DNA from: Escherichia coli
Lineage (GTDB): Bacteria; Pseudomonadota; Gammaproteobacteria; Enterobacterales; Enterobacteriaceae
Reading direction: 5' to 3' (one strand)
Length of the DNA stretch: 64,000 nucleotides
Assembly (NCBI RefSeq): GCF_046105845.1
Contig: NZ_CP151004.1
How positions within the stretch are numbered: the first letter of the stretch is position 1; each line of letters starts with the position of its first letter. Shown here piece by piece: positions 37,723 to 63,905 of this stretch. A model generated the notes under the pieces. The model saw nothing but the letters and a program-made list of their open reading frames with translations, was not told the DNA's origin and searched no databases. The position numbers and the translations under genes were made by a program.

Positions 37723-39036
<1,314 letters not shown>

Positions 39037-39055
39037 GTCTGACTTTATCTGATTT

Positions 39056-39087
39056 AAAAATGCCAGCCTTCGGGCTGGCATTTTTTA
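39056..39087. terminator. bidirectional rho-independent terminator between eno and ygcG
   Basis: aaaaatgccagccttcgggctggcattttttatgg: GC hairpin flanked by A-run and T-run. Confidence 0.7.
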
Positions 39088-39095
39088 TGGTTGAG

Positions 39096-39968
39096 TTACC
39101 AGCGACCGGACGCGCCGCCACCGCCAGAAGAACCGCCCCCGCCGCTAAATCCGCCGCCACTTGAGCCGCCACCGGAACCGCTGTTGTCTGAATGATAACT
39201 TCTACCAGATGCTTTTTTCTGAAGTACACATAAACAGGTAAAGACCATAAATATGGTGAAAGTAAAAAAGAAGGAAAATACAGCAATGGAAAAAGTTTTA
39301 TCGGAGAACAGGAATAAATCTAAAAGATAGATTGCTGAAATACAGACTCCACTTTTACATGCGCGACAAAAATTACTGCCTTGATGAAAAAACCAGAAAG
39401 GGAAGAACATCACTGCAAATACCCAAAAAATAGCAAAGTAATAATGATCACTGGAAGACGTTGATTCACTTTCTGAAGGTTTAGCCGGATATTGGTGTTG
39501 TGAAGTGAGTTGGTTATTCAAAGCGTTTATAGCTAGCTCTAATCCCTGAGCTAATTTTTGTTGTTCAAATGCGGGTATCATGTTGCTACGGATGATATCT
39601 CCAGCCAGAGCATCGGTTACCTTTTCTTCCAGCCCATAACCTACCTGGATGCGGACAGTACGATCCGACCAGGCAACAATGATCAGTATCCCATCATTAC
39701 GTTTGGCATCTCCTAAACGCCAATTGTCAAAAACTCTTGTAGCATATTGTTCAATTGTCTCGTCTTTGGTTGTGGGAACAATTAATACAGCAATTTGCAC
39801 TTGGGTATTATTGAAAATAGATTCTAACTTGTACGTCAGTTCTTTCTTTTCTTGTGAGTTTAAGCTACTCGTAAGATCCGTAACTTGTTGCTGTAATGAT
39901 GGGACAATAGTTGGTTGGGCTGCAACAAAGGAACACACGAATGTGAACATTAGTATGAAATAGCGCAT
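39096..39968 (-). CDS. ygcG: TPM-domain membrane protein YgcG
   Basis: ORF 39096..40037 trimmed to [19 protein letters not shown] (signal peptide); TPM domain, TM segment, C-terminal Gly/Ser-rich tail [28 protein letters not shown]; AT-rich. Confidence 0.75.
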
Positions 39969-40261
39969 TATAAATTTCTCATTAAATCTGGATAAATAAA
40001 TTGACGGCGGCATCGGTAATTTGAGATTCGTTATCATTAAAAACGAACACAGAAAAAATAAATATAAATTTGGTGAATGTTTTTGACATGATTAAATCCA
40101 TTTGCTTTATTTTCTTCTGACATAATACGTTACTCCCTTTAATTATTAACGATATGTTTCGCATTTTTCTTGAAACCTGCCTGTAACAGAATGTTAATAA
40201 GACATGATTGTTGTGGCAGGATCTGCAATAATTAACAATTATCCACTTCACAGAGAATGCT

Positions 40262-40933
40262 ATGCAGTACCCGATTAACGAGATGTTCCAGACCCTGCAA
40301 GGTGAGGGTTACTTTACCGGCGTCCCCGCTATTTTTATTCGTTTACAGGGATGCCCGGTTGGCTGTGCCTGGTGCGACACCAAACACACCTGGGAAAAGC
40401 TTGAGGATCGGGAAGTCTCCCTTTTCAGCATTCTGGGTAAAACGAAAGAGAGTGATAAGTGGGGAGCAGCAAGCAGTGAAGACTTACTCGCAGTCATCGG
40501 TCGTCAGGGATACACCGCGCGTCACGTGGTGATTACGGGTGGTGAACCTTGTATTCATGACTTGATGCCACTAACTGACCTGCTCGAAAAGAACGGTTTT
40601 AGCTGCCAGATCGAAACCAGTGGTACTCATGAAGTACGCTGCACACCGAATACCTGGGTTACCGTATCGCCAAAGCTGAACATGCGCGGCGGCTATGAAG
40701 TGTTGTCACAGGCACTGGAGCGAGCCAACGAAATCAAGCATCCAGTGGGACGCGTACGTGATATTGAAGCACTGGATGAACTTTTGGCGACGCTGACCGA
40801 TGATAAACCGCGAGTCATTGCACTGCAGCCGATTAGCCAAAAGGATGATGCCACACGTTTGTGCATTGAAACTTGCATTGCGCGTAACTGGCGTTTGTCG
40901 ATGCAAACACATAAATATTTAAATATTGCCTGA
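40262..40933 (+). CDS. queE: 7-carboxy-7-deazaguanine synthase QueE (radical SAM)
   Basis: 223 aa; radical-SAM cysteine cluster RLQGCPVGCAWCDTKH. Confidence 0.9.
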   Translation: MQYPINEMFQTLQGEGYFTGVPAIFIRLQGCPVGCAWCDTKHTWEKLEDREVSLFSILGKTKESDKWGAASSEDLLAVIGRQGYTARHVVITGGEPCIHDLMPLTDLLEKNGFSCQIETSGTHEVRCTPNTWVTVSPKLNMRGGYEVLSQALERANEIKHPVGRVRDIEALDELLATLTDDKPRVIALQPISQKDDATRLCIETCIARNWRLSMQTHKYLNIA

Positions 40934-41029
40934 TTACACATTTATATGCGTTATAAATGGGTGGAACCTGTAAAGACTTCCACTCATTTATATTTTTTGT
41001 CGCCTCTGAAAACTCATCCATTTTGCCCA

Positions 41030-41272
41030 TTCTGGACTAATCATTGTCATTCTCTACAAATTCTGTAGCGTTAATTTTTCTCTGGGGTGAAAATTATTAC
41101 GTCGGAGTTTGGTAGATTTTAGTTTGTATAGAGTTATTTTAAATATTTACCTTTTCAATCAATGGATTAAGTGCTCTTTAACATAATAGATGTGTTGTTT
41201 GTGTGATACTGTAAAGTTGGTAGATTGTGACTGGCTTAAAAAATCATTAATTAATAATAGGTTATGTTTAGA
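41030..41272 (+). promoter_or_regulatory. CRISPR leader (AT-rich; promoter and integration-host signals)
   Basis: AT-rich sequence ending ...tggtagattgtgactggcttaaaaaatcattaattaataataggttatgtttaga immediately before repeat 1; the degenerate repeat is at the opposite end of the array. Confidence 0.75.
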
Positions 41273-42643
41273 GAGTTCCCCGCGCCAGCGGGGATAAACC
41301 GTTGTCCTGCTGAACCAAGTAAGCCACTGACAAGAGTTCCCCGCGCCAGCGGGGATAAACCGCATTATATCCTGTGCGTCGTTCATTTATTTACGAGTTC
41401 CCCGCGCCAGCGGGGATAAACCGGCCGCCGCATGGCAAAACAAACATCGGGGTACGAGTTCCCCGCGCCAGCGGGGATAAACCGGAACGGCGGCTATACG
41501 GATTCGACAGGTCAGCGAGTTCCCCGCGCCAGCGGGGATAAACCGGATTGAATGCAGATGGTTCAATGCTCGCATTCGAGTTCCCCGCGCCAGCGGGGAT
41601 AAACCGCCACGCGTGCTTTGAGTGGATGGTGTCGCTTGGAGTTCCCCGCGCCAGCGGGGATAAACCGATACATTATTAAGCGGGCAATTTTTCCAGTTTG
41701 AGTTCCCCGCGCCAGCGGGGATAAACCGAACGGCACGGCCTGCCGCCACGTCCCGCAGCTGAGTTCCCCGCGCCAGCGGGGATAAACCGGGGCCGTGTTT
41801 TCTAACGGATTCGCACATTGCGAGTTCCCCGCGCCAGCGGGGATAAACCGCAGCAGTTCAATACTGAAATCAACATGCCGATGAGTTCCCCGCGCCAGCG
41901 GGGATAAACCGCGCGGTGGGGTTTCATTCGCATCAATTCAAGGGAGTTCCCCGCGCCAGCGGGGATAAACCGGCGGTGAGTGAGAAAATCAGGACGGCTG
42001 CGAGGAGTTCCCCGCGCCAGCGGGGATAAACCGCGCCAAATATGCTGGTGGACTTCTACGCCGATGAGTTCCCCGCGCCAGCGGGGATAAACCGCTATCG
42101 ACGGTCAAGAAAATCCACCGGAAGAAGAGTTCCCCGCGCCAGCGGGGATAAACCGGCAGCAATATATTTGACATAATAGATAACCCGGAGTTCCCCGCGC
42201 CAGCGGGGATAAACCGACGCCAGGGGAGATATAACGCGCCTGTTATGGGAGTTCCCCGCGCCAGCGGGGATAAACCGGTCTTAACTAAAAGATGACCATT
42301 CAGTCGCAGGAGTTCCCCGCGCCAGCGGGGATAAACCGCGGCCCATAATATTAATATAATCCACATGAGGGAGTTCCCCGCGCCAGCGGGGATAAACCGC
42401 GCCGGAAATCATCGTTCTGTAATTGTCTAGCGAGTTCCCCGCGCCAGCGGGGATAAACCGCCCTGTTTGTTATTCCCATTATACGTATAAGAGAGTTCCC
42501 CGCGCCAGCGGGGATAAACCGCTTCTGGCTGGAGGTGGAGAAACGGAGGCAATGAGTTCCCCGCGTTAGCGGGGATAAACCGGATTTAGAGAGCCAGACG
42601 TTGGTCAGTTATTCGAGTTCCCCGCGTCAGCGGGGATAACCAT
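41273..42643 (+). CRISPR. Type I-E CRISPR array, 23 repeats / 22 spacers
   Basis: 29-bp repeat GAGTTCCCCGCGCCAGCGGGGATAAACCG recurs at exactly 61-bp period from 41273 to 42615; 32-bp unique spacers; repeat 22 has C>T (GCGTTAGCGGGG); terminal repeat degenerate (GCGTCAGCGGGGATAACCA). Confidence 0.97.
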
Positions 42644-42655
42644 TCAGGTATGTTC

Positions 42656-42681
42656 AGGCCGGGCAGTTTCCCGCCCGGCCT
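42656..42681. terminator. GC hairpin between array end and ygcE stop (possible bidirectional terminator)
   Basis: aggccgggcagtttcccgcccggcct perfect stem-loop; no clear U-tract, so terminator function is uncertain. Confidence 0.4.
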
Positions 42682-42688
42682 TCCTCAC

Positions 42689-44167
42689 TTACGCATTCGA
42701 CCAGCTCTGGATCGAATCTTCATTCCCCAATTCCCCATGCATCACTTCATACGATTTTTTCAGGATCACATCAGTGTGTTTGGTTAGGTCTTTGAAAATG
42801 CCTTTATTCATCGCGTCGTAGCGTTTGGCGTTGCTCTCAACAGGCATAAAGATATCTTTCACGCGAACCATTTTGTCGACAGCCGTTGCGTAATCCGGGT
42901 ATAGCCCCAGACCTACCGCCGTATTAATCGCTGCCCCCAGGCTTGCACAACCATTAATGGCGTTACGGCGTGCCGGAAGGTTGAACACGTCGGCAAAAAT
43001 CTGCATAAACAGATCGCTGTTCGAACCGCCGCCAGTAATGATCACATGCTTTGCAAAGTGATTCATTTCATTACACATATTGTCGTAATTGTTCTTCAGC
43101 GTCAGCGCCACGCTTTCCAGTATCGAACGATATATCCATGCGTAATCCATGCTGGAATCAAAGCCGATCATAATCCCGCGTTTGTACGGTTCCCACGGAT
43201 TGGTCAGCCAGTCCAGCACCGTCATCAGACCATTACAGCCAGGCGGCACACAAGACGCTTTTTTGTTGAGCAAATCTTCCGGTGAAAGATCCTGTGCTTT
43301 GGCATCCTGAATTAACGACTCGCCTAACATGTCGCGTAGCCAGCTCACCGTCCACATGCCTTTGCGGATACCGTAACCTTCATACAGCAAGGTTTGTGGA
43401 ATAGAAGACATAATCGGCCAGTACGCTACCGGATCTTTCGGCAGTGCTTTGCCGTTCATCATCAACGCGATGTAAGTGCCAAGAGAAATTACCGCAGTTT
43501 CATCATCCAGTAACCCGGCTCCCAGTGCTTCTACCGGTTTATCACTGGTGGTACAAACAACCGGCAGCCCAGCCGGGAAATGTGTAGCCAGCGCGGCTTG
43601 AGGAGTGATATGCCCAAGAACAGTGCCCGGCATTTGCACATCAAACAGCATATGACGGGGGATATTAAACTTCTCCATGACTGCGGCATCTTCACTCCAT
43701 GCCCAGGTCTTATAATCCACCGGCCACTGACCAAAATAGTTGGCGATATTGTCTTTAAACTCGCCGGTTAAGCGATGCGTCAGATAACCTGAAAAAGAGG
43801 TGACATATGCCACGTCAGGATTCGTATGTTCGTAAGGGCGTGTAACGCGTGCATCCTGCCAGCTAATCAACGGCGCAGCTGGCGTGCCATCGGCTTTCAA
43901 TAACGCACGGCAGCAACGGATGGATCCCAGACCAATACCGACAATATCTTCTTTATTTCCGGCAAACTGACTCATCAAATCGTGACCGGCAAAACATAAT
44001 GATGCCCATAAATCGTCGTCAGGATGTTCTGCGGTATCGGCATCTGGCGTGTGCATCGGCTGTAATAAGCCTTTGCCTTCGCAAACCACGTTACCTTCCA
44101 GATCGTACATCACCACTTTTGTGCTCTGACTTCCGCCATCAATCCCTATGATGTATTTTTTCGACAT
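42689..44167 (-). CDS. ygcE: FGGY-family carbohydrate kinase YgcE (substrate unknown)
   Basis: 492 aa MSKKYIIGIDGGSQSTKVVMYD; FGGY N- and C-terminal domains. Confidence 0.85.
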   Translation of the reverse strand: MSKKYIIGIDGGSQSTKVVMYDLEGNVVCEGKGLLQPMHTPDADTAEHPDDDLWASLCFAGHDLMSQFAGNKEDIVGIGLGSIRCCRALLKADGTPAAPLISWQDARVTRPYEHTNPDVAYVTSFSGYLTHRLTGEFKDNIANYFGQWPVDYKTWAWSEDAAVMEKFNIPRHMLFDVQMPGTVLGHITPQAALATHFPAGLPVVCTTSDKPVEALGAGLLDDETAVISLGTYIALMMNGKALPKDPVAYWPIMSSIPQTLLYEGYGIRKGMWTVSWLRDMLGESLIQDAKAQDLSPEDLLNKKASCVPPGCNGLMTVLDWLTNPWEPYKRGIMIGFDSSMDYAWIYRSILESVALTLKNNYDNMCNEMNHFAKHVIITGGGSNSDLFMQIFADVFNLPARRNAINGCASLGAAINTAVGLGLYPDYATAVDKMVRVKDIFMPVESNAKRYDAMNKGIFKDLTKHTDVILKKSYEVMHGELGNEDSIQSWSNA

Positions 44168-44193
44168 GATTTTTCTCCTGTAATTTTCTGGAC

Positions 44194-45471
44194 TTACTTG
44201 CTGCTAGCCATAGCAGGGGCGCTATCAGCAGTACGAATTTTTTGGAACAGCAAAAAGGTAAAGACGATCACCATGGCAAGCGCCGCCATGCCCATCAGCC
44301 ACATATTGCGGTAGGCTTCTGCAGCGGGCAGGGTGTCTTGCCAGTAGCCGATAATCGGGTAAACGAAGACATCCGGCAGGAATCCAATCACCGAACAAAT
44401 ACCTACCGTGGTGCCCATAATGTAAGACGGTGTTCTCGCTTCGCCAGGGCAGGCCCAGTACAGCCCGCGTGAGGCGTAACAGGTGAATCCCAGCAGTAAA
44501 ATCAGGCCAATCCCCATCGCGACCGATTGCGGGTTAGAGTTCGTGACGAGCAGGGCAGTTAACGCCAGCAAGCCGAGTACGGAAAGGATTTGGATCACGC
44601 GGGTAGGGGATTTCACTTTGCTGTAGGTGGTGATAATGCCACCAAGTGGGCCGCACAGCGCGCGGAAGATTTTGTTGATCACAATCCCCATGTAGCTCGC
44701 CGCCACCAGCGACATGCCGTACATTTCGGTCAGATAGTTGGTGGAGTAACTCAGAATGGCGTAGATGGTGAAGACACCAAAAATCACCATGCTGCAATAC
44801 CAGGTGGTTCTGATGCGCAAAACGGCCAGGATGTCGCTAAGCTGGAATGAATGTTTTTCTTCGTTATTGGTATTGCGCAGGTTGTTGTTATCGCTGACAA
44901 AAAACCAACACAAAATGCCCAGCAGAATGTAAACCACACTATAGATAATAATGACCGTTTTCAGGCTGGCGCTGTCATCCGGTGCAAAGCGAGAAAAGAC
45001 CCACATGGTAAACACCGCCAGCGACATTACACCGACGCCGCGCAGCCCTTCCATCCAGCCCATAATTTTCCCTTGCTCGCTATGATCGCCCAGCAACGAT
45101 GCGGCTTTAATCGACACCGACCACAGCATTAAAATCGTCGTTATCGCAAAGGCGACCTGAATACAGAGCATTACCCACAGCGGTGGATATGTTGCCATTA
45201 ACAGACCCAGTAATCCGGTAATGATCATCGCGGAAGTAATCATTTTGCGGTGTGAAAATTTATCGGCAATAACGCCGCTGGGGGCATAAAGAATAATAGC
45301 CGCAATACCAAAGGTACTCATTATTAAACCTATCTCGGTATTGCTGAATCCCATAAATTTCGCCATGGGAATTTGATAAATATAACGTAAATAAGCCAGG
45401 TCGAAACTAACGCCGCCGCTAAAACTAATTATCGCGAGGGTTATCCAACGGCGATATGAGTTGTGTTGCAT
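44194..45471 (-). CDS. yqcE: MFS transporter YqcE
   Basis: 425 aa, about 12 TM segments. Confidence 0.85.
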   Translation of the reverse strand: MQHNSYRRWITLAIISFSGGVSFDLAYLRYIYQIPMAKFMGFSNTEIGLIMSTFGIAAIILYAPSGVIADKFSHRKMITSAMIITGLLGLLMATYPPLWVMLCIQVAFAITTILMLWSVSIKAASLLGDHSEQGKIMGWMEGLRGVGVMSLAVFTMWVFSRFAPDDSASLKTVIIIYSVVYILLGILCWFFVSDNNNLRNTNNEEKHSFQLSDILAVLRIRTTWYCSMVIFGVFTIYAILSYSTNYLTEMYGMSLVAASYMGIVINKIFRALCGPLGGIITTYSKVKSPTRVIQILSVLGLLALTALLVTNSNPQSVAMGIGLILLLGFTCYASRGLYWACPGEARTPSYIMGTTVGICSVIGFLPDVFVYPIIGYWQDTLPAAEAYRNMWLMGMAALAMVIVFTFLLFQKIRTADSAPAMASSK

Positions 45472-45789
45472 ATCGTATTCCCATTTGTAATAGACAAAAA
45501 AAAGAGAAAAGTAAGCCGCCCTTTCAGGTGGATTACTTTTCTCAGGTCTCTAGTAATTGCAATAAGAAATAACATGGAAAGCAGTGGTGTTGTGTGAGAG
45601 TAATCACGCTTCTGCTTTTTAAAATTATTTGACAATTCGAATATCACACTGTGATTACGATCACATTAGCGATTATGCCCTTATGATAAAAATTATCTCC
45701 AGTTACCAGAGATAATGAGAAAGGTAACTTCCCTCTCGCGGGGGAAGTTACCTTTCTTTTTTTTTGCCTTACGGAAATTGGAGCTAACT

Positions 45790-46575
45790 ATGTCAATCGA
45801 ATCTCTCAATGCGTTCTCAATGGATTTTTTCTCCCTGAAAGGTAAAACCGCAATTGTTACCGGCGGGAATAGCGGTTTAGGCCAGGCATTTGCCATGGCG
45901 CTGGCCAAAGCAGGCGCAAATATCTTTATTCCAAGCTTCGTTAAAGATAACGGAGAAACAAAGGAAATGATTGAAAAACAGGGTGTTGAGGTGGACTTCA
46001 TGCAGGTGGATATCACCGCAGAAGGCGCGCCGCAGAAGATAATCGCCGCCTGTTGCGAACGTTTCGGTACCGTCGATATTCTGATTAACAATGCCGGTAT
46101 TTGTAAGCTGAATAAGGTGCTGGACTTCGGTCGTGCCGACTGGGACCCGATGATTGATGTGAACCTGACCGCCGCATTCGAGTTAAGCTATGAAGCGGCA
46201 AAAATTATGATCCCGCAGAAAAGCGGTAAAATCATTAATATCTGTTCATTGTTCTCTTACTTAGGTGGACAATGGTCACCTGCTTATTCTGCCACTAAAC
46301 ATGCTCTTGCCGGATTCACCAAAGCCTATTGCGATGAATTAGGTCAATATAATATTCAGGTGAATGGTATTGCTCCGGGATATTACGCTACCGATATCAC
46401 TCTGGCGACCCGTAGTAATCCAGAAACTAACCAGCGCGTTCTTGATCATATTCCGGCAAACCGTTGGGGCGATACTCAGGATTTAATGGGCGCAGCCGTA
46501 TTCCTCGCAAGTCCGGCATCGAATTATGTCAACGGACATTTATTAGTGGTTGATGGCGGTTATTTAGTGCGCTAA
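45790..46575 (+). CDS. ygcW: short-chain dehydrogenase/reductase YgcW (KduD/gluconate 5-dehydrogenase-like)
   Basis: ORF 45715 trimmed to MSIESLNAFS start; SDR cofactor motif TGGNSGLGQA and catalytic YSATK. Confidence 0.8.
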   Translation: MSIESLNAFSMDFFSLKGKTAIVTGGNSGLGQAFAMALAKAGANIFIPSFVKDNGETKEMIEKQGVEVDFMQVDITAEGAPQKIIAACCERFGTVDILINNAGICKLNKVLDFGRADWDPMIDVNLTAAFELSYEAAKIMIPQKSGKIINICSLFSYLGGQWSPAYSATKHALAGFTKAYCDELGQYNIQVNGIAPGYYATDITLATRSNPETNQRVLDHIPANRWGDTQDLMGAAVFLASPASNYVNGHLLVVDGGYLVR

Positions 46576-46644
46576 TCCATAACGGTGGTTTCTGTTTTCT
46601 CTTATTAATGATTATTCCATTTTTATTATCAGGAAGGAATTACT

Positions 46645-48099
46645 ATGTCTTTATCTCGCGCAGCGATTGTCGACCAGCTAAAGGAAATTGTTGGTGCAGA
46701 TCGCGTAATTACCGATGAAACAGTATTAAAGAAAAACAGTATTGACCGTTTTCGTAAATTTCCGGATATTCATGGTATTTATACTTTGCCGATTCCGGCA
46801 GCGGTCGTAAAACTCGGTTCCACAGAACAAGTCTCCCGTGTGCTGAATTTTATGAATGCGCACAAAATTAACGGTGTGCCGCGTACCGGCGCTTCCGCCA
46901 CTGAAGGTGGGCTGGAAACCGTTGTGGAAAACTCGGTGGTGCTCGACGGCTCCGCCATGAATCAAATCATTAATATTGATATTGAGAATATGCAGGCCAC
47001 GGCGCAATGTGGTGTTCCGCTGGAAGTGCTGGAAAACGCGTTGCGTGAAAAAGGTTACACCACGGGGCATTCTCCGCAGTCAAAGCCGCTGGCGCAGATG
47101 GGCGGCCTGGTAGCAACCCGCAGTATCGGGCAGTTCTCCACACTCTACGGCGCAATCGAAGATATGGTCGTTGGTCTGGAAGCGGTACTGGCAGATGGCA
47201 CCGTAACACGCATTAAAAACGTACCACGCCGCGCGGCAGGCCCGGACATTCGCCACATCATCATCGGCAACGAAGGTGCATTGTGCTATATCACTGAAGT
47301 AACAGTGAAAATCTTTAAGTTCACCCCGGAAAACAACCTCTTCTACGGCTATATCCTGGAAGACATGAAAACCGGCTTCAACATCCTGCGTGAAATCATG
47401 GTGGAAGGGTATCGTCCGTCGATCGCTCGTTTGTATGACGCTGAAGATGGCACCCAACACTTCACCCATTTTGCCGATGGTAAATGTGTGCTGATCTTTA
47501 TGGCTGAAGGTAACCCTCGCATTGCGAAGGCGACAGGCGAAGGGATTGCGGAAATCGTGGCACGTTACCCGCAATGCCAGCGAGTGGACAGCAAGCTGAT
47601 CGAAACCTGGTTTAATCACCTGAACTGGGGGCCGGATAAAGTGGCCGCTGAACGTGTGCAGATCCTCAAAACCGGCAACATGGGCTTTACCACCGAAGTG
47701 TCCGGCTGCTGGAGCTGCATCCACGAAATCTACGAAAGCGTTATTAACCGTATTCGTACCGAGTTCCCGCACGCCGACGACATCACCATGCTGGGCGGTC
47801 ACTCCTCTCACAGCTACCAGAACGGCACCAACATGTACTTCGTTTACGACTACAACGTTGTTGACTGTAAGCCGGAAGAGGAAATCGACAAGTACCACAA
47901 TCCGCTCAACAAAATCATCTGCGAAGAAACCATTCGCCTCGGCGGTTCGATGGTGCACCACCACGGTATTGGTAAACATCGCGTTCACTGGAGCAAACTG
48001 GAACACGGCAGCGCGTGGACGTTGCTGGAAGGTCTGAAAAAACAGTTCGATCCTAACGGCATTATGAATACGGGTACTATCTATCCGATTGAAAAATAA
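46645..48099 (+). CDS. ygcU: FAD-linked oxidase YgcU (GlcD / alkyl-DHAP synthase-like)
   Basis: 484 aa; FAD-binding PCMH-type domain. Confidence 0.85.
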   Translation: MSLSRAAIVDQLKEIVGADRVITDETVLKKNSIDRFRKFPDIHGIYTLPIPAAVVKLGSTEQVSRVLNFMNAHKINGVPRTGASATEGGLETVVENSVVLDGSAMNQIINIDIENMQATAQCGVPLEVLENALREKGYTTGHSPQSKPLAQMGGLVATRSIGQFSTLYGAIEDMVVGLEAVLADGTVTRIKNVPRRAAGPDIRHIIIGNEGALCYITEVTVKIFKFTPENNLFYGYILEDMKTGFNILREIMVEGYRPSIARLYDAEDGTQHFTHFADGKCVLIFMAEGNPRIAKATGEGIAEIVARYPQCQRVDSKLIETWFNHLNWGPDKVAAERVQILKTGNMGFTTEVSGCWSCIHEIYESVINRIRTEFPHADDITMLGGHSSHSYQNGTNMYFVYDYNVVDCKPEEEIDKYHNPLNKIICEETIRLGGSMVHHHGIGKHRVHWSKLEHGSAWTLLEGLKKQFDPNGIMNTGTIYPIEK

Positions 48100-48191
48100 T
48101 ATGTCAGGCAGCGTTCCGCTATGAGGGGCGTTGCCTTTTCGGCTTCTCAGGCGAGAAGCCGTTCTTATTACCGGACAATGAAGGGGTAAAG

Positions 48192-49529
48192 ATGAACACT
48201 TCACCGGTGCGAATGGATGATTTACCGCTTAACCGTTTTCACTGTCGAATTGCTGCGCTCACTTTCGGCGCGCACCTGACCGACGGTTATGTTCTCGGCG
48301 TCATTGGTTACGCCATTATTCAGCTTACACCCGCCATGCAACTGACGCCGTTTATGGCGGGAATGATTGGCGGCTCAGCACTCCTTGGTTTGTTTCTTGG
48401 CAGCCTGGTTCTGGGCTGGATCTCCGACCATATTGGGCGACAAAAAATCTTCACCTTCAGCTTTTTGCTGATTACGCTTGCTTCGTTTTTACAATTTTTT
48501 GCCACCACGCCAGAGCATCTTATTGGACTGCGCATTTTGATTGGCATTGGTCTGGGAGGCGATTACTCAGTCGGTCACACCTTGCTGGCTGAATTTTCCC
48601 CGCGCCGCCATCGCGGTGTTTTGCTGGGCGCATTCAGCGTAGTGTGGACGGTGGGCTATGTGCTGGCAAGCATTGCCGGACATCACTTTATTAGCGAAAG
48701 CCCGGAGGCCTGGCGCTGGCTGCTGGCATCGGCAGCTCTGCCCGCATTGTTGATTACGTTATTACGCTGGGGAACGCCAGAATCGCCACGCTGGCTACTG
48801 CGCCAGGGGCGTTTTGCAGAAGCTCACGCTATCGTGCATCGCTATTTTGGTCCCCATGTTTTACTGGGCGATGAAGTGGCAACGGCGACCCATAAACACA
48901 TCAAAACCTTGTTCTCTTCGCGCTACTGGCGGCGCACGGCGTTTAACAGCGTCTTCTTTGTCTGCCTCGTAATCCCATGGTTTGTGATTTATACCTGGCT
49001 GCCAACTATCGCCCAGACTATTGGTCTGGAAGATGCGTTGACTGCCAGCCTGATGCTTAATGCGTTGTTAATTGTGGGTGCGCTGCTGGGATTAGTTCTG
49101 ACGCACCTGCTGGCACATCGCAAATTTTTGCTGGGAAGTTTTTTGCTGCTGGCGGCAACGCTGGCAGTGATGGCTTGTTTGCCTTCCGGCAGTTCATTAA
49201 CGCTGCTGCTTTTTGTTCTCTTCAGCACCACCATTTCGGCAGTCAGTAATCTGGTGGGCATTTTGCCTGCGGAAAGTTTTCCTACTGACATTCGCTCGCT
49301 GGGCGTCGGTTTTGCCACCGCCATGAGTCGACTTGGCGCGGCGGTAAGTACTGGCCTGCTGCCGTGGGTGCTGGCGCAGTGGGGAATGCAAGTCACCTTA
49401 TTGCTCCTGGCGGCAGTGTTGTTGGTTGGTTTTGTTGTGACCTGGCTATGGGCACCAGAAACCAAAGCACTCTCGCTGGTGGCGGCGGGAAATGTAGGAG
49501 GTGCGAATGAACATTCTGTTAGCGTTTAA
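48192..49529 (+). CDS. ygcS: MFS sugar-type transporter YgcS
   Basis: 445 aa, 12 TM, sugar-porter-like motifs (GRQKIF, PESPRWL). Confidence 0.85.
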   Translation: MNTSPVRMDDLPLNRFHCRIAALTFGAHLTDGYVLGVIGYAIIQLTPAMQLTPFMAGMIGGSALLGLFLGSLVLGWISDHIGRQKIFTFSFLLITLASFLQFFATTPEHLIGLRILIGIGLGGDYSVGHTLLAEFSPRRHRGVLLGAFSVVWTVGYVLASIAGHHFISESPEAWRWLLASAALPALLITLLRWGTPESPRWLLRQGRFAEAHAIVHRYFGPHVLLGDEVATATHKHIKTLFSSRYWRRTAFNSVFFVCLVIPWFVIYTWLPTIAQTIGLEDALTASLMLNALLIVGALLGLVLTHLLAHRKFLLGSFLLLAATLAVMACLPSGSSLTLLLFVLFSTTISAVSNLVGILPAESFPTDIRSLGVGFATAMSRLGAAVSTGLLPWVLAQWGMQVTLLLLAAVLLVGFVVTWLWAPETKALSLVAAGNVGGANEHSVSV

Positions 49530-50286
49530 AGCCGAACCGGATGCCGGAATGCTGGCGGAAAAAGAGTGGCAGGCGGCGGCTCAGGGTAATAGCGGACCGG
49601 ATGTTTCGCTTCTGCGAAGTTTACTCGGTGCTGATGAACAGGCTGCCGCCGCGCTGCTGTTGGCGCAGAGAAAAAACGGTACGTCGATGTCTTTAACCGC
49701 GTTGAGCATGGGGGATGAACGGGCGTTGCACTGGCTGCGCTATCTCATGGCCCTTGGGTTTGAGGAAGCTGTATTGCTGGAGACAGCGGCAGATCTGCGC
49801 TTTGCGCCGGAATTTGTCGCTCGCCATATTGCCGAATGGCAGCGTCAGAATCCGCTGGATCTGATAATTACCGGCTGCCAAAGCAGCGAAGGGCAGAATG
49901 GGCAAACGCCATTTTTGCTGGCGGAAATGCTGGGCTGGCCCTGCTTCACCCAGGTGGAGCGTTTCACTCTCGACGCGCCGTTTATCACCCTCGAACAGCG
50001 TACTGAACATGGGCTGCGCTGTTGCCGGGTTCGCTTGCCTGCGGTGATTGCCGTGCGCCAGTGCGGTGAAGTGGCCTTGCCAGTACCGGGAATGCGCCAG
50101 CGAATGGCGGCGGGGAAAGCAGAAATTATCCGTAAAACTGTTGCTGCCGAATTGCCAGCGATGCAGTGTCTGCAACTGGCAAGAGCAGAGCAACGACGCG
50201 GAGCGAGGCTGATTGATGGGCAAACGGTAGCAGAAAAAGCGCAAAAGCTATGGCAGGACTATTTACGCCAAAGGATGCGGCCATGA
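49507..50286 (+). CDS. ygcR: electron transfer flavoprotein beta-subunit-like YgcR (FixA-like)
   Basis: Start MNILLAFKAEPD; ETF-beta fold; overlaps ygcS 3' end and ygcQ start. Confidence 0.8.
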   Translation: MNILLAFKAEPDAGMLAEKEWQAAAQGNSGPDVSLLRSLLGADEQAAAALLLAQRKNGTSMSLTALSMGDERALHWLRYLMALGFEEAVLLETAADLRFAPEFVARHIAEWQRQNPLDLIITGCQSSEGQNGQTPFLLAEMLGWPCFTQVERFTLDAPFITLEQRTEHGLRCCRVRLPAVIAVRQCGEVALPVPGMRQRMAAGKAEIIRKTVAAELPAMQCLQLARAEQRRGARLIDGQTVAEKAQKLWQDYLRQRMRP

Positions 50287-51143: not shown

Positions 51144-51147
51144 CGTG

Positions 51148-51253
51148 CTGCCGGATGATCCTGCCTACGGTTCTGGGCTGGGGACTTGTAAGCCTGATAA
51201 GACGCGTCAAGCGTCGTATCAGGCGCTGAATGTCGGATGTGGCGTGCAGCCTA
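51148..51253. repeat. BIME (tandem REP units) between convergent ygcQ and ygcP
   Basis: tgccggatgatcctgcctac...gcctgataagacgcgtcaagcgtcgtatcaggc...gtcggatgtggcgtgcagcctac: several REP-type palindromes. Confidence 0.6.
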
Positions 51254-51289
51254 CAAAGCACATAAATTCAACTCGTTACGAGTATCCCG

Positions 51290-51865: not shown

Positions 51866-51881
51866 AAATTATCCTTATTAT

Positions 51882-53404: not shown

Positions 53405-53481
53405 GTCGTGCCCCATATATCCAGAGCGCAACACCCTAACATAGCGTTACTTAAGGGAAATTGACCGCCGACACACTCTTA

Positions 53482-58840: not shown

Positions 58841-61507
58841 ATGGAACCTTTTAAATATATATGTCATTACTGGGGGAAATCCTCAAAAAGCCTGACGAAA
58901 GGAAATGATATTCATCTGTTGATTTATCATTGCCTGGATGTTGCAGCTGTTGCAGATTGCTGGTGGGATCAATCAGTCGTACTACAAAATGCTTTTTGCC
59001 GAAATGAAATGCTATCAAAACAGAAGGTGAAAGCCTGGCTGTTATTTTTCATTGCCCTTCATGATATCGGAAAGTTTGATATACGATTCCAATATAAATC
59101 AGCAGAAAGTTGGCTGAAATTAAATCCTGCAACGCCATCACTTAATGGTCCATCAACACAAATGTGCCGTAAATTTAATCATGGTGCAGCCGGTCTGTAT
59201 TGGTTTAACCAGGATTCACTTTCAGAGCAATCTCCCGGGGATTTTTTCAGTTTTTTTGATGCCGCTCCTCATCCTTATGAGTCCTGGTTTCCATGGGTAG
59301 AGGCCGTTACAGGACATCATGGTTTTATATTACATTCCCAGGATCAAGATAAGTCGCGTTGGGAAATGCCAGCTTCTCTGGCATCTTATGCTGCGCAAGA
59401 TAAACAGGCTCGTGAGGAGTGGATATCTGTACTCGAAGCATTATTTTTAACGCCAGCTGGGTTATCTATAAACGATATACCACCTGATTGTTCATCACTG
59501 TTAGCAGGTTTTTGCTCGCTTGCTGACTGGTTAGGTTCCTGGACCACAACGGATACCTTTCTATTCAAAGAAGATGCACCTTCAGGCATACAAGCGCTAA
59601 GAACATATTTTCAGTATAGACAACAGGATGCGTGTCGGGTACTGGAGTTGAGTGGCCTTGTATCAAATAAGCGTAGTTATGACGGCGTACATGCCTTACT
59701 GGACAATGGCTATCAACCAAGACAATTACAGGTGTTGGTTGATGCTCTTCCTACAGCTCCCGGGCTGACGGTGATTGAGGCACCTACGGGATCAGGTAAA
59801 ACCGAAACAGCGCTGGCCTATGCCTGGAAACTTATTGACCAACAACTTGCGGAGAGTGTTATTTTTGCCCTCCCTACACAAGCTACTGCAAATGCAATGC
59901 TCAGTAGAATGGAAGCGAACGCGAGCCGTTTATTTACCTCCCCAAATCTTATTCTTGCTCATGGTAATTCACGTTTTAACCACCTTTTTCAATCAATAAA
60001 ATCACGCGCATTTACTGAGCAGGGGCAAGAAGAAGCATGGGTTCAGTGTTGCCAATGGTTGTCACAAAGTAATAAGAAAGTGTTTCTAGGGCAAATAGGC
60101 GTTTGCACGATTGATCAGGTATTGATATCGGTATTGCCAGTTAAACATCGCTTTATCCGTGGTTTGGGAATTGGTCGAAGTATTTTAATTGTTGATGAAG
60201 TTCATGCTTACGACACGTATATGAACGGCTTGCTGGAGGCTGTGCTCAAGGCTCAGGCTGATGTGGGAGGGAGTGTTATTCTTCTTTCCGCAACTCTACC
60301 AATGAAACAAAAACAGAAACTTCTGGATACTTATGGTCTGCATACAGATCCAGAGGAAAATAACTCCGCATATCCACTCATTAACTGGCGAGGTGTGAAT
60401 GGTGCACAACGTTTTGATCTGTTAGCTCATCCAGAACAACTCCCGCCCCGCTTTTCGATTCGGCCAGAACCTATTTATTTAGCTGACATGTTACCTGACC
60501 TTAGGATGTTAGAGCGAATGATCGCAGCGGCAAATGCGGGTGCACAAGTCTGTCTTATCTGCAATTTGGTTGATGTTGCACAACTATGCCACCAACGGTT
60601 AAAGGAACTAAATAACACGCAAGTAGATATAGATTTGTTTCATGCGCGCTTTACGCTGAACGATCGTCGTGAAAAAGAGAATCGAGTTATTAGCAATTTC
60701 GGCAAAAATGGGAAGCGAAATGTTGGACGGATACTTGTCGCCACCCAGGTCGTGGAACAATCACTCGACGTTGATTTTGATTGGTTAATTACTCAGCATT
60801 GCCCCGCAGATTTACTTTTCCAACGATTGGGCCGTTTACATCGCCATCATCGCAAATATCGTCCCGCTGGTTTTGAGGTTCCTCTTGCCACCGTTTTGCT
60901 GCCTGATGGCGAAGGTTACGGACGACATGAGCATATTTATAGCAACGTTAGAGTCATGTGGCGGACGCAGCAACATATTGAGGAACTTAATGGAGCATCC
61001 TTATTTTTCCCCGATGCCTACCGGCAATGGCTGGATAGCATTTACGATGATGCTGAAATGGATGAGCCAGAATGGGTCATCAAAGGCATGGATAAGTTTG
61101 AAAGCGCTGAGTGTGAAAAGAGGTTCAAGGCTCGCAAGGTTCTGCAGTGGGCTGAAGAATATAGCTTGCAGGATAACGATGAAACAATTCTTGCGGTAAC
61201 GAGGGATGGGGAAATGAGCCTGCCATTATTGCCTTATTTACAAACGTCTTCAGGTAAACAACTGCTCGATGGCCAGGTCTACGAGGACCTAAGTCATGAA
61301 CAGCAGTATGAGGCGTTAGCACTTAATCGCGTCAATGTACCCTTCACCTGGAAACGTAATTTTTCTGAAGTAGTAGATGAAGATGGGTTACTTTGGCTGG
61401 AAGGGAAACAGAATCAGAATGGATGGATCTGGCAGGGTAATAATATTGTTATTACCTACACTCGGGATGAAGGGATGACCAGAGTCATCCCTGCAAATCC
61501 CAAATAA
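58841..61507 (+). CDS. cas3: CRISPR-associated nuclease/helicase Cas3 (type I-E)
   Basis: 888 aa; HD nuclease motif (FIALHDIGKFD), SF2 helicase Walker A (EAPTGSGKTETAL) and DEAH-type box (LIVDEVHAYD). Confidence 0.95.
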   Translation: MEPFKYICHYWGKSSKSLTKGNDIHLLIYHCLDVAAVADCWWDQSVVLQNAFCRNEMLSKQKVKAWLLFFIALHDIGKFDIRFQYKSAESWLKLNPATPSLNGPSTQMCRKFNHGAAGLYWFNQDSLSEQSPGDFFSFFDAAPHPYESWFPWVEAVTGHHGFILHSQDQDKSRWEMPASLASYAAQDKQAREEWISVLEALFLTPAGLSINDIPPDCSSLLAGFCSLADWLGSWTTTDTFLFKEDAPSGIQALRTYFQYRQQDACRVLELSGLVSNKRSYDGVHALLDNGYQPRQLQVLVDALPTAPGLTVIEAPTGSGKTETALAYAWKLIDQQLAESVIFALPTQATANAMLSRMEANASRLFTSPNLILAHGNSRFNHLFQSIKSRAFTEQGQEEAWVQCCQWLSQSNKKVFLGQIGVCTIDQVLISVLPVKHRFIRGLGIGRSILIVDEVHAYDTYMNGLLEAVLKAQADVGGSVILLSATLPMKQKQKLLDTYGLHTDPEENNSAYPLINWRGVNGAQRFDLLAHPEQLPPRFSIRPEPIYLADMLPDLRMLERMIAAANAGAQVCLICNLVDVAQLCHQRLKELNNTQVDIDLFHARFTLNDRREKENRVISNFGKNGKRNVGRILVATQVVEQSLDVDFDWLITQHCPADLLFQRLGRLHRHHRKYRPAGFEVPLATVLLPDGEGYGRHEHIYSNVRVMWRTQQHIEELNGASLFFPDAYRQWLDSIYDDAEMDEPEWVIKGMDKFESAECEKRFKARKVLQWAEEYSLQDNDETILAVTRDGEMSLPLLPYLQTSSGKQLLDGQVYEDLSHEQQYEALALNRVNVPFTWKRNFSEVVDEDGLLWLEGKQNQNGWIWQGNNIVITYTRDEGMTRVIPANPK

Positions 61508-61921
61508 CTTCGGGAATGATTGGTATCAATGACGATAACAAGACCAATAACGGTTTATCCCTACTTAAGTAGGGAAGGTGCACAATGTACATCTTCTTTT
61601 AATTTCCCGGTATGAGATTTTATATTCACAGTATGAATATTTTATGTAATAAAATTCATGGTGATTATTATAACTAAAAATTTCTTTGATAATAAAACGA
61701 ATAACTTGCAGATTTGAAATGCATGCATTATTGTCTTTAAACAATTCAACACATCTTAATATATGCATAGGTTAATTGTATTAAACCAATGGATATATTT
61801 TTGCAGTGAATGTGATTATTGAATTAATTACGCCGTATTTTTTCTTTGTTTTTACCGATAACGGAAGTGTGCCGACGTATAGAAATGCAGGAGAAATGTC
61901 GGAGCATATGAAGGAGAACAA
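61508..61921 (+). promoter_or_regulatory. cas3-cse1 intergenic region containing the Cascade operon promoter (Pcas)
   Basis: 414 bp, strongly AT-rich, non-coding, directly upstream of cse1; in E. coli K-12 this region is H-NS-silenced and LeuO-activated (established knowledge; exact promoter elements not mapped here). Confidence 0.6.
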
Positions 61922-63430
61922 ATGAATTTGCTTATTGATAACTGGATCCCTGTACGCCCGCGAAACGGGGGGAAAGTCCAAATCATAAATCTGCAATCGC
62001 TATACTGCAGTAGAGATCAGTGGCGATTAAGTTTGCCCCGTGACGATATGGAACTGGCCGCTTTAGCACTGCTGGTTTGCATTGGGCAAATTATCGCCCC
62101 GGCAAAAGATGACGTTGAATTTCGACATCGCATAATGAATCCGCTCACTGAAGATGAGTTTCAACAACTCATCGCGCCGTGGATAGATATGTTCTACCTT
62201 AATCACGCAGAACATCCCTTTATGCAGACCAAAGGTGTCAAAGCAAATGATGTGACTCCAATGGAAAAACTGTTGGCTGGGGTAAGCGGCGCGACGAATT
62301 GTGCATTTGTCAATCAACCGGGGCAGGGTGAAGCATTATGTGGTGGATGCACTGCGATTGCGTTATTCAACCAGGCGAATCAGGCACCTGGTTTTGGTGG
62401 TGGCTTTAAAAGCGGTTTACGTGGAGGAACACCTATAACCACCTTCGTATGTGGGATCGATCTTCGCTCGACGGTGTTACTCAATGTCCTCACAATACCT
62501 CGTCTTCAAAAACAATTTCCCAATGAATCAAATACGGAAAACCAACCTACCTGGATTAAGCCTGTCAAGCCCAATGAATCTGTGCCAGCTTCGTCAATTG
62601 GGTTTGTCCGTGGCTTATTCTGGCAACCAGCGCATATTGAATTATGCGATCCCATTGGGATTGGTAAATGTTCTTGCTGTGGACAGGAAAGCAATTTGCG
62701 TTATACAGGTTTTCTTAAGGAAAAATTTACCTTTACAGTTAATGGGCTATGGCCCCATCCGCATTCCCCTTGTCTGGTAACAGTCAAGAAAGGGGAGGTT
62801 GAGGAAAAATTTCTTGCTTTCACCACCTCCGCACCATCATGGACACAAATCAGCCGAGTTGTGGTAGATAAGATTATTCAAAATGAAAATGGAAATCGCG
62901 TGGCGGCGGTTGTGAATCAATTCAGAAATATTGCGCCGCAAAGTCCTCTTGAATTGATTATGGGGGGATATCGTAATAATCAAGCATCTATTCTTGAACG
63001 GCGTCATGATGTGTTGATGTTTAATCAGGGGTGGCAACAATACGGCAATGTGATAAACGAAATAGTGACTGTTGGTTTGGGATATAAAACAGCCTTACGC
63101 AAGGCGTTATATACCTTTGCAGAAGGGTTTAAAAATAAAGACTTCAAAGGGGCCGGAGTCTCTGTTCATGAGACTGCAGAAAGGCATTTCTATCGACAGA
63201 GTGAATTATTAATTCCCGATGTACTGGCGAATATTAATTTTTCCCAAGCTGATGAGGTAATAGCTGATCTACGAGACAAACTTCATCAATTGTGTGAAAT
63301 GCTATTTAATCAATCTGTAGCTCCCTATGCACATCATCCTAAATTAATAAGCACATTAGCGCTTGCCCGCGCCACGCTATACAAACATTTACGGGAGTTA
63401 AAACCGCAAGGAGGGTCATCAAATGGCTGA
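61922..63430 (+). CDS. casA: Cascade large subunit Cse1 (CasA, Cas8e)
   Basis: 502 aa MNLLIDNWIPVRPRNGGKVQIINLQSLYCSRDQWRLSLPRDD, recognised as E. coli Cse1. Confidence 0.95.
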   Translation: MNLLIDNWIPVRPRNGGKVQIINLQSLYCSRDQWRLSLPRDDMELAALALLVCIGQIIAPAKDDVEFRHRIMNPLTEDEFQQLIAPWIDMFYLNHAEHPFMQTKGVKANDVTPMEKLLAGVSGATNCAFVNQPGQGEALCGGCTAIALFNQANQAPGFGGGFKSGLRGGTPITTFVCGIDLRSTVLLNVLTIPRLQKQFPNESNTENQPTWIKPVKPNESVPASSIGFVRGLFWQPAHIELCDPIGIGKCSCCGQESNLRYTGFLKEKFTFTVNGLWPHPHSPCLVTVKKGEVEEKFLAFTTSAPSWTQISRVVVDKIIQNENGNRVAAVVNQFRNIAPQSPLELIMGGYRNNQASILERRHDVLMFNQGWQQYGNVINEIVTVGLGYKTALRKALYTFAEGFKNKDFKGAGVSVHETAERHFYRQSELLIPDVLANINFSQADEVIADLRDKLHQLCEMLFNQSVAPYAHHPKLISTLALARATLYKHLRELKPQGGSSNG

Positions 63431-63905
63431 TGAAATTGATGCAATAGCTTTATATCGAGCCTGGCAACAACTGGATAATGGAGCATGTGCGCAAATTAGA
63501 CGTGTTTCAGAACCTGATGAATTACGCGATATCCCTGCGTTTTATAGGCTGGTGCAACCTTTTGGTTGGGAAAACCCACGTCACCAGCAGGCTCTTTTGC
63601 GCATGGTGTTTTGCCTGAGCGCAGGAAAGAATGTCATCCGACATCAGGACAAAAAACCGGAGCAAATAACAGGTATCTCGTTGGGAAGAGCTTTAGCCAA
63701 TAGTGGAAGAATTAACGAGCGCCGTATCTTTCAATTAATTCGGGCTGACAGAACAGCCGATATGGTCCAGTTACGTCGATTACTTACTCACGCCGAACCC
63801 GTACTTGACTGGCCATTAATGGCCAGGATGTTGACCTGGTGGGGAAAGCGCGAACGCCAGCAACTTCTGGAAGATTTTGTATTGACCACAAACAAAAATG
63901 CGTAA
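63423..63905 (+). CDS. casB: Cascade small subunit Cse2 (CasB, Cas11)
   Basis: 160 aa MADEIDAIALYRAWQQLDNGACAQIRR; 8-bp overlap with casA. Confidence 0.9.
   Translation: MADEIDAIALYRAWQQLDNGACAQIRRVSEPDELRDIPAFYRLVQPFGWENPRHQQALLRMVFCLSAGKNVIRHQDKKPEQITGISLGRALANSGRINERRIFQLIRADRTADMVQLRRLLTHAEPVLDWPLMARMLTWWGKRERQQLLEDFVLTTNKNA

Follow-up and report, generated by a model that had tools for sequence, protein, structure and literature searches.

In Escherichia coli K-12, the spacer between the divergent genes queE and ygcG contains a promoter island (U00096.2 2903475-2903812) with H-NS occupancy in the Kahramanoglou and Oshima chromatin immunoprecipitation datasets, and three predictors of horizontal gene transfer flag a gene at this island (PMC3661553 Table 1). 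The homologous DNA analyzed here lies at positions 39096-41272 of a 64,000-nucleotide stretch of the chromosome of another E. coli strain (NCBI RefSeq assembly GCF_046105845.1, contig NZ_CP151004.1). This whole stretch is hereafter called the window. The interval runs from ygcG through queE to the leader of a CRISPR array; 41272 is the last base of the leader, and the first repeat starts at 41273. An earlier note on the window had described the interval as one AT-rich block, with the composition of horizontally acquired, H-NS-silenced DNA. We propose, with a probability of about 0.78, that the interval is instead a composite, in which AT-rich accessory and regulatory DNA of separate origins lies on either side of the core gene queE.

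Several reports describe the homologs of these parts. The K-12 spacer was recovered as an H-NS site, queE<HNS>yqcG, with RpoD promoters by genomic systematic evolution of ligands by exponential enrichment (SELEX; PMC3946193 Table 1), and it gives a peak of sigmaS-RNA polymerase in chromatin immunoprecipitation sequencing (PMC4447067). Phosphorylated PhoP (PhoP-P) bound each of the two 300-bp segments that precede queE, and the spacer served as the site of queE induction; deletion of yqcG increased queE expression further (PMC4974570). Two more K-12 promoter islands carry H-NS, namely ygcE/queE, bound "in all studies", and casA/cas3 (PMC3661553). The CRISPR leader, named leader 2.3 of the ygcE-ygcF locus in the published nomenclature (PMC3903273), serves routinely for recording the acquisition of spacers (PMC11879090), and spacer integration there needs integration host factor (IHF; PMC5224486). 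In BL21-AI, a dCas9 pull-down at NC_012947.1:1002800-1003800 recovered H-NS with a score above those of Cas1 and Cas2 (PMC5224486), and a further report (PMC2886076) refers to Pul et al. 2010 for the co-regulation of both arrays by H-NS. K-12-type (E2) cas genes have a mean GC content of 45.6%, compared with 50.7% for the genome (PMC3903273).

Composition of the interval

All 58 of the 58 K-12 genes and RNA features from tcdA to casC were colinear with the window, in reverse orientation and with 94.8-100% identity. Judged from its sequence, the window is a segment of the E. coli chromosome that matches K-12 2.882-2.946 Mb.

The AT-richness described in the earlier note was confirmed. The GC content of 39096-41272 was 0.408, compared with 0.503 in the whole window, and only 0.2% of all 2177-bp windows had a GC content as low or lower. 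Sliding-window analysis separated the interval from the window average and resolved it into two troughs flanking queE: the 200-bp GC profile fell to 0.295-0.32 at 39200-40300 and 40800-41300, and stood at 0.48-0.535 in queE between them. When the window's 21 intergenic regions with a length of 80 bp or more were ranked (mean GC 0.422), the ygcG/yqcG-queE spacer (0.297), the leader (0.307), and the spacer between cas3 and casA (0.307) had the three lowest values.

Among the protein-coding genes mapped in the window, GC content at third codon positions (GC3) was lowest in ygcG (0.361), followed by cas3 (0.370), casA (0.382), and casB (0.410), and it was at least 0.438 in every other full-length gene. 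Codon usage was measured as Karlin codon bias (B) against the window's own genes, and genes of at least 250 codons were ranked. The outliers were cas3 (0.488), casA (0.470), and ygcG (0.443), plus eno and sdaC, which are of the highly expressed type. In the remaining genes that are not highly expressed, B was at most 0.39. The codon usage of ygcG was close to that of casA and cas3 (0.47-0.49), and the low GC content that had also been pointed out for the cas3-casC region was found there (cas3 0.440, casA 0.440, casB 0.464).

queE between the two flanks

In contrast to the two troughs, queE is a core gene of native composition, outside any island (Table 1). Its orthologs were 77-91% identical across Enterobacterales, and its ratio of nonsynonymous to synonymous divergence (dN/dS) was 0.017. 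The synonymous divergence (dS) of queE to K-12 was 0.228, five times that of ygcG (0.043) and eno (0.033). This jump from ygcG to queE indicated that the two sides of the spacer have different recombinational histories.

Outside E. coli, the slot between eno and queE was compared in two other enterobacterial genera (loci L010 and L012), whose pyrG was 83-86% identical to that of the window. The gene order in both was relA-mazG-pyrG-eno-queE-queD-cysJIH. The slot was empty in L010 and was occupied by an unrelated epimerase-family gene in L012.

The downstream side of queE also differed among genomes. In L010 and L012, queE was directly followed by queD-cysJIH, and the CRISPR-II array with ygcE...ygcN (40934-53481, about 12.5 kb) is an insertion relative to both genera. 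In E. coli strain GF4-3, queE was followed by one hypothetical gene and then by queD.

The lemA-TPM cassette in the eno-queE slot

We surveyed 5426 complete E. coli genomes by BLAST. K-12-type ygcG with its spacer was found at a coverage of at least 80% in 3923 of them (about 72%). In most of the others, only 40055-40261 of the window aligned (82-84% identity, E 1e-39 to 6e-46), to DNA annotated as coding for a LemA family protein. The lemA gene was present in 1454 of the 5426 genomes, including O157:H7.

In strain APEC O1, the slot contained lemA (204 aa; locus L003 4421-5035) and three paralogous genes with a TPM domain, one of which is a pseudogene. All three TPM paralogs had the same tail motif as the YgcG of the window, to which they were 45, 26, and 38% identical. 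These low identities ruled out K-12 ygcG as a simple recombinant of the APEC O1 paralogs. Other E. coli loci had further arrangements: lemA, two TPM genes, and a mosaic gene whose C-terminal 210 aa were K-12-type YgcG (L005), and lemA, a TPM pseudogene, a TPM gene, and a mosaic ygcG (L009). In these mosaic last genes (L005 4989-5873, L009 4501-5373), the N-terminal approximately 85 codons resembled the adjacent TPM3-type paralog with a dS of 0.22-0.28, while the C-terminal approximately 200 codons were K-12-type ygcG with a dS of 0.08-0.10. This split indicated gene conversion among the tandem paralogs.

The low GC3 was shared within the cassette: 0.35-0.38 in lemA, 0.36 in ygcG, and 0.42-0.47 in the other TPM genes. 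The dN/dS of lemA was 0.06-0.08, with a dS between strains of 0.33-0.41. Since lemA is strongly constrained yet has a low GC3, low GC3 is not merely a result of decay. Patchy distribution or atypical codon usage, of a kind that would be consistent with acquisition, was found for the ygcG/lemA cassette and not for queE. These features support a view of the cassette as acquired, or at least xenogeneic-like, accessory DNA, with relaxed selection as a secondary contributor; the cassette presumably entered by horizontal transfer.

LemA matched PHROG 1383, "virion structural protein" (E=1.4e-22), and was the only cassette protein with a match to a PHROGs phage family; LemA-like proteins therefore occur also in phage genomes. 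None of the cassette proteins (YgcG, LemA, and the TPM paralogs) had a credible defence-family match in PADLOC; the only hit had E=0.0059.

The yqcG remnant and the divergent spacer

The yqcG homolog in the divergent spacer had one extra A compared with K-12, which shifted the frame after 14 codons; from the K-12-equivalent ATG, 28 codons were read before a stop. A shorter open reading frame from an internal ATG (MDLIMSKTF..., 39 aa) remained open in the old frame. In strain GF4-3, which has the closest ygcG allele, the annotation "frameshifted" was found at the same place of yqcG.

When the spacers of the window, K-12, and APEC O1 were aligned, the first 89 bp next to queE were identical in all three. 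Homology then continued at 63-65% through the start and the first 26 codons of lemA, and dropped to 43% beyond. LemA reads MFRIFIAFIFIFNLSGCGYNDIQTYD and YqcG reads ...VKTFTKIIFIFSVLVFNDNEYKITD. By this alignment, lemA homology ends at about codon 26, at the deletion junction, and the C-terminal two thirds of yqcG are a remnant of the LemA signal-peptide region. With a lemA remnant inside yqcG, the K-12-type locus is a deletion derivative of a lemA-TPM operon. The yqcG product itself is not a member of the LemA family (PF04011): only about 26 N-terminal codons are shared, as DNA homology, and no NCBIfam family was matched. We found no paper in the searchable literature that names yqcG together with LemA.

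The 89-bp stretch next to queE showed 0-3 mismatches across seven E. coli loci, compared with 26-47 in the 672 bp of their queE genes. Even the lemA-type haplotypes carried it unchanged, and the corresponding DNA of another genus was unrelated to it. Its near-invariance argued for a constrained promoter and 5'-untranslated region (UTR) element. The predicted RNA fold was modest (z=-2.33), and no Rfam family was matched. A scan for the PhoP box (KGTTTA-N5-KGTTTA, at most 3 mismatches) gave 189 matches in the window, with only weak ones in the spacer, and did not pinpoint the published PhoP sites.

The ygcG gene and its C-terminal motif

YgcG of the window matched the TPM_phosphatase family PF04536 with E=2.4e-36 and 124.9 bits (cutoff 22.1). 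Related solved structures were BA41 5anp (E=6.7e-23), 7tbr, 2kw7, and BA42. Kyte-Doolittle analysis predicted an N-terminal, signal-like hydrophobic segment at aa 3-23 in addition to the three membrane segments. The hydropathy profile and the tail survey described below together gave the architecture of the YgcG family, with a signal peptide, membrane segments, and a Gly-rich end in G-x-W.

The earlier note had quoted the Gly/Ser tail of ygcG as a low-complexity end. The tail was present exactly as quoted, but it is not incidental. An exhaustive homolog search returned 20,912 relatives from among 1.84 billion cluster representatives, and we surveyed the 141 full-length proteins among the best 150, each from a separate 50%-identity cluster. 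A Gly/Ser-rich tail was found in 138 of the 141, and W was the last residue in 134. The commonest endings were GRW (47) and GSW (46), and the consensus was FSGGGGxxGGGGASG[RS]W. This conservation shows the tail to be a terminal motif of the YgcG family and not incidental low complexity. Matches in the PDB to single-chain major histocompatibility complex constructs were rejected as artefacts of the synthetic (G4S)n linkers of these constructs.

The tail codons and stop (39096-39182) had a GC content of 0.713 because the tail is built of GGN codons, and they were the sole GC-rich spot of ygcG. The GC content of the gene was 0.414, and 0.380 without the tail, with 0.439, 0.366, and 0.336 at the first, second, and third codon positions.

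The dN/dS of ygcG was 0.21-0.52 in five allele pairs and 0.36-0.43 against the mosaic genes, compared with 0-0.04 in the housekeeping neighbours (0 in pyrG and eno). An intact reading frame with a perfectly kept terminal motif was found in 3923 genomes. ygcG is an AT-rich accessory gene under weak constraint.

The best YgcG homologs outside its own E. coli cluster were at most 45% identical; they came from Brenneria goodwinii, Limnobaculum, Yersinia pseudotuberculosis, and Pseudomonas citronellolis, and from an E. coli paralog. A scan of contigs with YgcG, a method that detects close relatives only, found just one E. coli record and a 413-bp contaminant contig. The latter, the low-coverage contig NZ_RAWK01000597.1 of the Corallococcus aberystwythensis assembly, codes for a 94%-identical fragment of E. 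coli YgcG and is almost certainly E. coli contamination.

The CRISPR-II leader

The leader has the properties of a type I-E leader: it is AT-rich, shares conserved sequence with characterised leaders, and directly precedes the first repeat in the orientation in which the array is transcribed. Its repeat-proximal 200 bp hardly differed from those of the K-12 CRISPR-II leader and showed a recognisable relationship to the K-12 CRISPR-I leader. Reading by eye, we found a candidate IHF site, AATCATTAATTAA, at about -18 to -30 (41243-41255), with two mismatches to the consensus WATCAANNNNTTR; the region of this site was identical to the K-12 CRISPR-II leader. In K-12 (locus L002 4425-5410), the corresponding region has a degenerate 3-repeat array, a 0.44-kb stretch with a GC content of 0.20-0.30, and then a 7-repeat array.

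Relation to published H-NS binding

After conversion of coordinates, the queE/ygcG promoter island of K-12 starts 34 bp upstream of queE and extends through yqcG into the 5' end of ygcG. The K-12 counterparts of the leader, the spacer, and ygcG are at NC_000913.3 2,904,408-2,904,746, 2,905,419-2,905,710, and 2,905,711-2,906,583, respectively. The region of the BL21 pull-down was verified by comparison to be the queE-proximal array and leader of BL21, and the cas3/casA spacer of the window aligned with the spacer of the K-12 casA/cas3 promoter island. The AT content expected of H-NS-bound DNA, clearly higher than in the genome and the neighbourhood for 100-300 bp or more, was found in the divergent spacer (0.297), the leader (0.307), and ygcG without its tail (0.380), and not in queE (0.501). 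By analogy with K-12 and BL21, H-NS would bind and repress in this strain.

Surrounding features

Table 1. Positions of the features of the interval and of the compared regions in the window
Feature	Position	Strand	Remarks
eno/ygcG intergenic region, convergent	39037..39095		GC 0.407; short inverted repeat (self-match in reverse orientation); candidate shared terminator
ygcG, 290 aa, signal peptide, periplasmic TPM domain, three hydrophobic segments, Gly-rich C-terminus	39096..39968	-	97.4% nucleotide and 96% amino-acid identity to K-12 ygcG
Gly/Ser tail, aa 263-290	39099..39182	-	C-terminal YgcG-family motif
Phe-rich hydrophobic region, three predicted membrane segments (aa 176-196, 203-221, 224-251)	39216..39443	-	Kyte-Doolittle; AT-rich 3' half of ygcG, 200-bp GC 0.325-0.385
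TPM domain, aa 29-152	39513..39884	-	Pfam PF04536 (TPM_phosphatase), profile positions 1-124/125
ygcG/yqcG-queE divergent promoter spacer	39969..40261		GC 0.297, most AT-rich intergenic region in the window; 97% identical to K-12
yqcG homolog, frameshifted	39982..40123	-	95.1% identity to K-12 yqcG, one gap
lemA remnant, first 26 codons (signal peptide and lipobox region)	40011..40089	-	ungapped identity of 63% to codons 1-26 of APEC O1 lemA (shuffle p<=5e-5); continuous with homologous DNA upstream
Near-invariant 89-bp stretch just upstream of queE	40173..40261	+	imperfect hairpin; presumed queE core promoter and 5'-UTR
queE (ygcF), 7-carboxy-7-deazaguanine synthase	40262..40933	+	GC 0.501, GC3 0.518, codon bias B 0.327
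CRISPR-II (CRISPR2.2-3) type I-E leader	40934..41272	+	GC 0.307; abuts first repeat, canonical orientation
CRISPR-II array, 23 repeats of 29 bp and 22 spacers	41273..42643	+	61-bp period, last two repeats degenerate, GC 0.54-0.64
cas3, cas3/casA spacer (61508-61921), casA, casB	58841..63905	+	94.9-99.2% identity to K-12; GC 0.44-0.46, GC3 0.37-0.41

Terminator-like stems were present at 39026-39043 on both strands, next to the convergent eno/ygcG region. An Rfam scan of 38900-41500 gave no match above threshold. Two matches to Salmonella small RNAs at 38994-39092 (+), the eno 3' end and terminator, scored under the gathering cut-offs: STnc430 (24.6 bits, E=0.57) and STnc370 (29.4 bits, E=0.3).

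Elsewhere in the window, other AT-rich intergenic regions were gcvB/gcvA (2926-3053, GC 0.336), syd/csrB (20935-21144, 0.348), yqcE/ygcW (45472-45789, 0.365), fucP/fucA (11387-11932, 0.368), and sdaC/ppnN (17442-17996, 0.377). The K-12 counterpart of yqcE/ygcW is marked as an H-NS SELEX spacer (PMC3946193).

The dS to K-12 was mosaic along the window. It was low in eno (0.033), pyrG (0.045), ygcG (0.043), and casA (0.047), and high in queE (0.228), ygcW (0.265), cas3 (0.181), gudD (0.177), and ygcE (0.160). This pattern, with the single match above 97% that the queE-plus-leader allele had among the 5426 genomes, suggests recombination imports from a divergent lineage at 40262-41272, 45790-46575, and 58841-61507.

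Discussion

The composite reading rests on what was observed in composition, gene identities, cassette polymorphism, the deletion junction, selection regimes, and conservation of the tail motif. On the left flank, ygcG and the yqcG stub would be the rest of an AT-rich accessory operon between eno and queE, consisting of lemA followed by two or three tandem TPM paralogs. A deletion from about codon 26 of lemA to just upstream of the last paralog, carried by K-12, the window strain, and altogether about 72% of the complete E. coli genomes, would have left the lemA promoter with the signal-peptide codons, now read as yqcG, and ygcG. The divergent spacer would then hold the old lemA promoter region together with the 89-bp near-invariant stretch by queE. 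On the right flank, the AT-richness of the leader probably goes with its function as array promoter and as the site, bent by IHF, at which Cas1-Cas2 docks. H-NS nucleates preferentially on AT-rich tracts of about 30% GC. It most likely dampens transcription from the divergent yqcG/ygcG promoter and from that of the leader, and would be overridden at queE and yqcG by dedicated activators and sigma factors (PhoP-P, sigmaS).

A single horizontally acquired, H-NS-silenced island reaching from ygcG through the leader would account for the average GC content of 0.408, within the lowest 0.2% of windows, and for the published H-NS signals at both ends in K-12 or BL21 (PMC3661553, PMC5224486). It is, however, incompatible in several ways with queE in its middle, which makes up 31% of the interval. 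queE has normal GC content (0.501), GC3, and codon usage, has a dN/dS of 0.017, is core across Enterobacterales, and in other genera sits next to eno and queD with neither flank present; the change in dS from 0.043 in ygcG to 0.228 in queE speaks for separate histories. We consider a single island extremely improbable, and the claim of one acquired block was not upheld. Horizontal acquisition would fit the ygcG/lemA cassette remnant, by composition, codon bias, and polymorphism, but not queE or the interval as a unit. In the same way, the claim of H-NS silencing agrees with published H-NS on the K-12 and BL21 homologs of the spacer and leader, while "silenced" is too simple a word for DNA with active, regulated promoters. 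It is also quite improbable that nothing sets the AT-rich intergenic pieces apart from the usual promoter regions of E. coli. Intergenic DNA in the window has a mean GC content of 0.422, several other promoter spacers reach 0.34-0.38, and the density of promoter-like hexamers was not above that in composition-matched shuffles. Against this, the spacer and leader, with the cas3/casA spacer, are the three lowest of 21, and their K-12 and BL21 homologs were specifically reported as H-NS-associated (PMC3661553, PMC3946193, PMC5224486).

Two further explanations concern ygcG only. Its AT-richness might come purely from the amino-acid content of a Phe/Ile-rich membrane protein, with nothing foreign. 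Phe makes up 9.3% of YgcG and the residues F, Y, M, I, N, and K together 28.6%, and one of the two lowest-GC stretches of ygcG (39200-39500) coincides with the three hydrophobic segments. We regard this explanation as very unlikely, as GC3 of ygcG without its tail is 0.336, compared with about 0.52-0.66 in nearby membrane-protein genes (yqcE 0.613, sdaC 0.663, gudP 0.639), its codon bias groups with the cas genes, and lemA of the same cassette has a GC3 of 0.35-0.38 as well. Alternatively, ygcG could be a long-resident gene that drifted AT-rich because it was barely expressed and weakly selected, leaving GC-to-AT mutation bias unopposed. Such decay would fit its dN/dS of 0.21-0.52 (0-0.04 in housekeeping neighbours), the deletion of partner genes, the frameshift of yqcG in the window strain, and the recombinational replacement of the ygcG N-terminus in some strains. 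As the full explanation it is nevertheless unlikely: lemA has equally AT-rich third positions at a dN/dS of 0.06-0.08, and low GC3 thus predates relaxation; the slot is empty or otherwise filled in other genera; and ygcG is intact, with its terminal motif, in 3923 genomes. Decay probably contributes, without explaining the composition of the whole cassette.

Several points weigh against the composite reading, or against carrying the K-12 data over to this strain. Two of the three predictors that flag horizontal transfer at the K-12 island are reportedly composition-based, and are not independent of the AT-richness itself. No cassette donor was identified among the YgcG homologs. The slot comparison, which bears on the time and direction of gain or loss, covered E. 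coli and the two other genera. The allele of queE plus leader is rare: the best match was 97.1% identical (one genome), with 95-99% identity in 453 genomes and 90-95% in 4968. The 339-bp leader was 93.2% identical to the K-12 CRISPR-II leader, with the queE-proximal half more diverged. The ygcE/queE H-NS island of K-12 corresponds to the 0.44-kb stretch between the arrays, not to the queE-proximal leader, and is absent from the window. The high-affinity H-NS motif TCGATAAATT (at most 2 mismatches) gave 82 matches in the window, compared with 68.6 +/- 8.9 expected, 4 of them in the interval, and was not discriminating. The scan for sigma70 hexamers was uninformative as well, with 5 sites compared with 5.5 +/- 2.2 in composition-matched shuffles; the promoter-island definition of Panyukov and Ozoline rests on PlatProm, not on a simple hexamer scan.

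Earlier papers already describe the AT-richness of the K-12 and BL21 homologs and their association with H-NS, and the finding itself is ordinary. What the composite reading offers is a correction: the "island" consists of two accessory flanks, unrelated to each other, on the sides of a core queuosine gene, its AT-richness is found alongside active, regulated promoters and a working CRISPR leader, and the "low-complexity" tail is a motif conserved throughout a large, uncharacterised family of proteins. The apparently undescribed additions are small, namely the lemA origin of yqcG, the cassette architectures and how often they occur, the relaxation of selection on ygcG, the conserved end of the protein, and the near-invariant DNA upstream of queE. 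They are cheap leads for work on E. coli small proteins, QueE-mediated filamentation, and TPM-domain proteins. As a bolder speculation, to which we give little credence, the eno-queE slot could hold a fast-turnover, H-NS-damped envelope module of LemA and tandem TPM paralogs, with the paralogs shuffled, converted, and deleted from one E. coli lineage to another; the strictly conserved C-terminal motif with its free carboxyl end could, instead of being a linker, function as a signal in sorting, processing, or assembly, for instance; and YqcG, the "small stress protein" of K-12, could be an exapted LemA signal-peptide remnant whose DNA also tunes PhoP-dependent queE expression.

Comparison with known systems

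The spacer of the window is homologous to the K-12 promoter island queE/ygcG (Panyukov and Ozoline 2013, PMC3661553), with 97% identity, the same gene order, and the same AT-richness, the casA/cas3 island being the other K-12 counterpart. It is also homologous to the SELEX site queE<HNS>yqcG (Shimada et al. 2014, PMC3946193). Unlike in K-12, yqcG is frameshifted, and the second island, AT-rich DNA of about 0.5 kb between the arrays, is missing because the array of the window is continuous. The H-NS data belong to K-12 and not to the window strain.

The cas3, casA, and casB genes of the window are 95-99% identical to the E2 cas set (Almendros et al. 2014, PMC3903273) and share its low GC content; they are compositional outliers of the same type as ygcG. 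They lie 17.5 kb away from the ygcG cassette, with no evidence of joint arrival. The leader resembles known type I-E leaders (Almendros et al. 2014, PMC3903273; Yoganand et al. 2017, PMC5224486) in abutting the first repeat and in its AT-richness, and its locus supports IHF-dependent integration in K-12 and BL21. It differs from the K-12 CRISPR-II leader in its queE-proximal half (overall identity 93.2%), and its candidate IHF site has two mismatches to the consensus.

YgcG is like other TPM proteins (PF04536; BA41 5anp, BA42 4oa3/2lt2, 7tbr, 2kw7, plant TLP18.3, and cyanobacterial Psb32) in its TPM domain, and like the TPM "YgcG family" in its signal peptide, membrane segments, and C-terminal motif. 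Compared with these relatives, K-12-type YgcG has an unusually Phe-rich membrane region of three segments, a low GC3, and relaxed constraint. With the LemA-TPM operons (LemA PF04011; APEC O1, O157:H7), the locus shares the slot and the promoter region. It keeps the first approximately 26 codons of lemA and the last TPM paralog, whereas the body of lemA and the upstream paralogs are deleted, and it is a stub rather than a LemA-TPM system.

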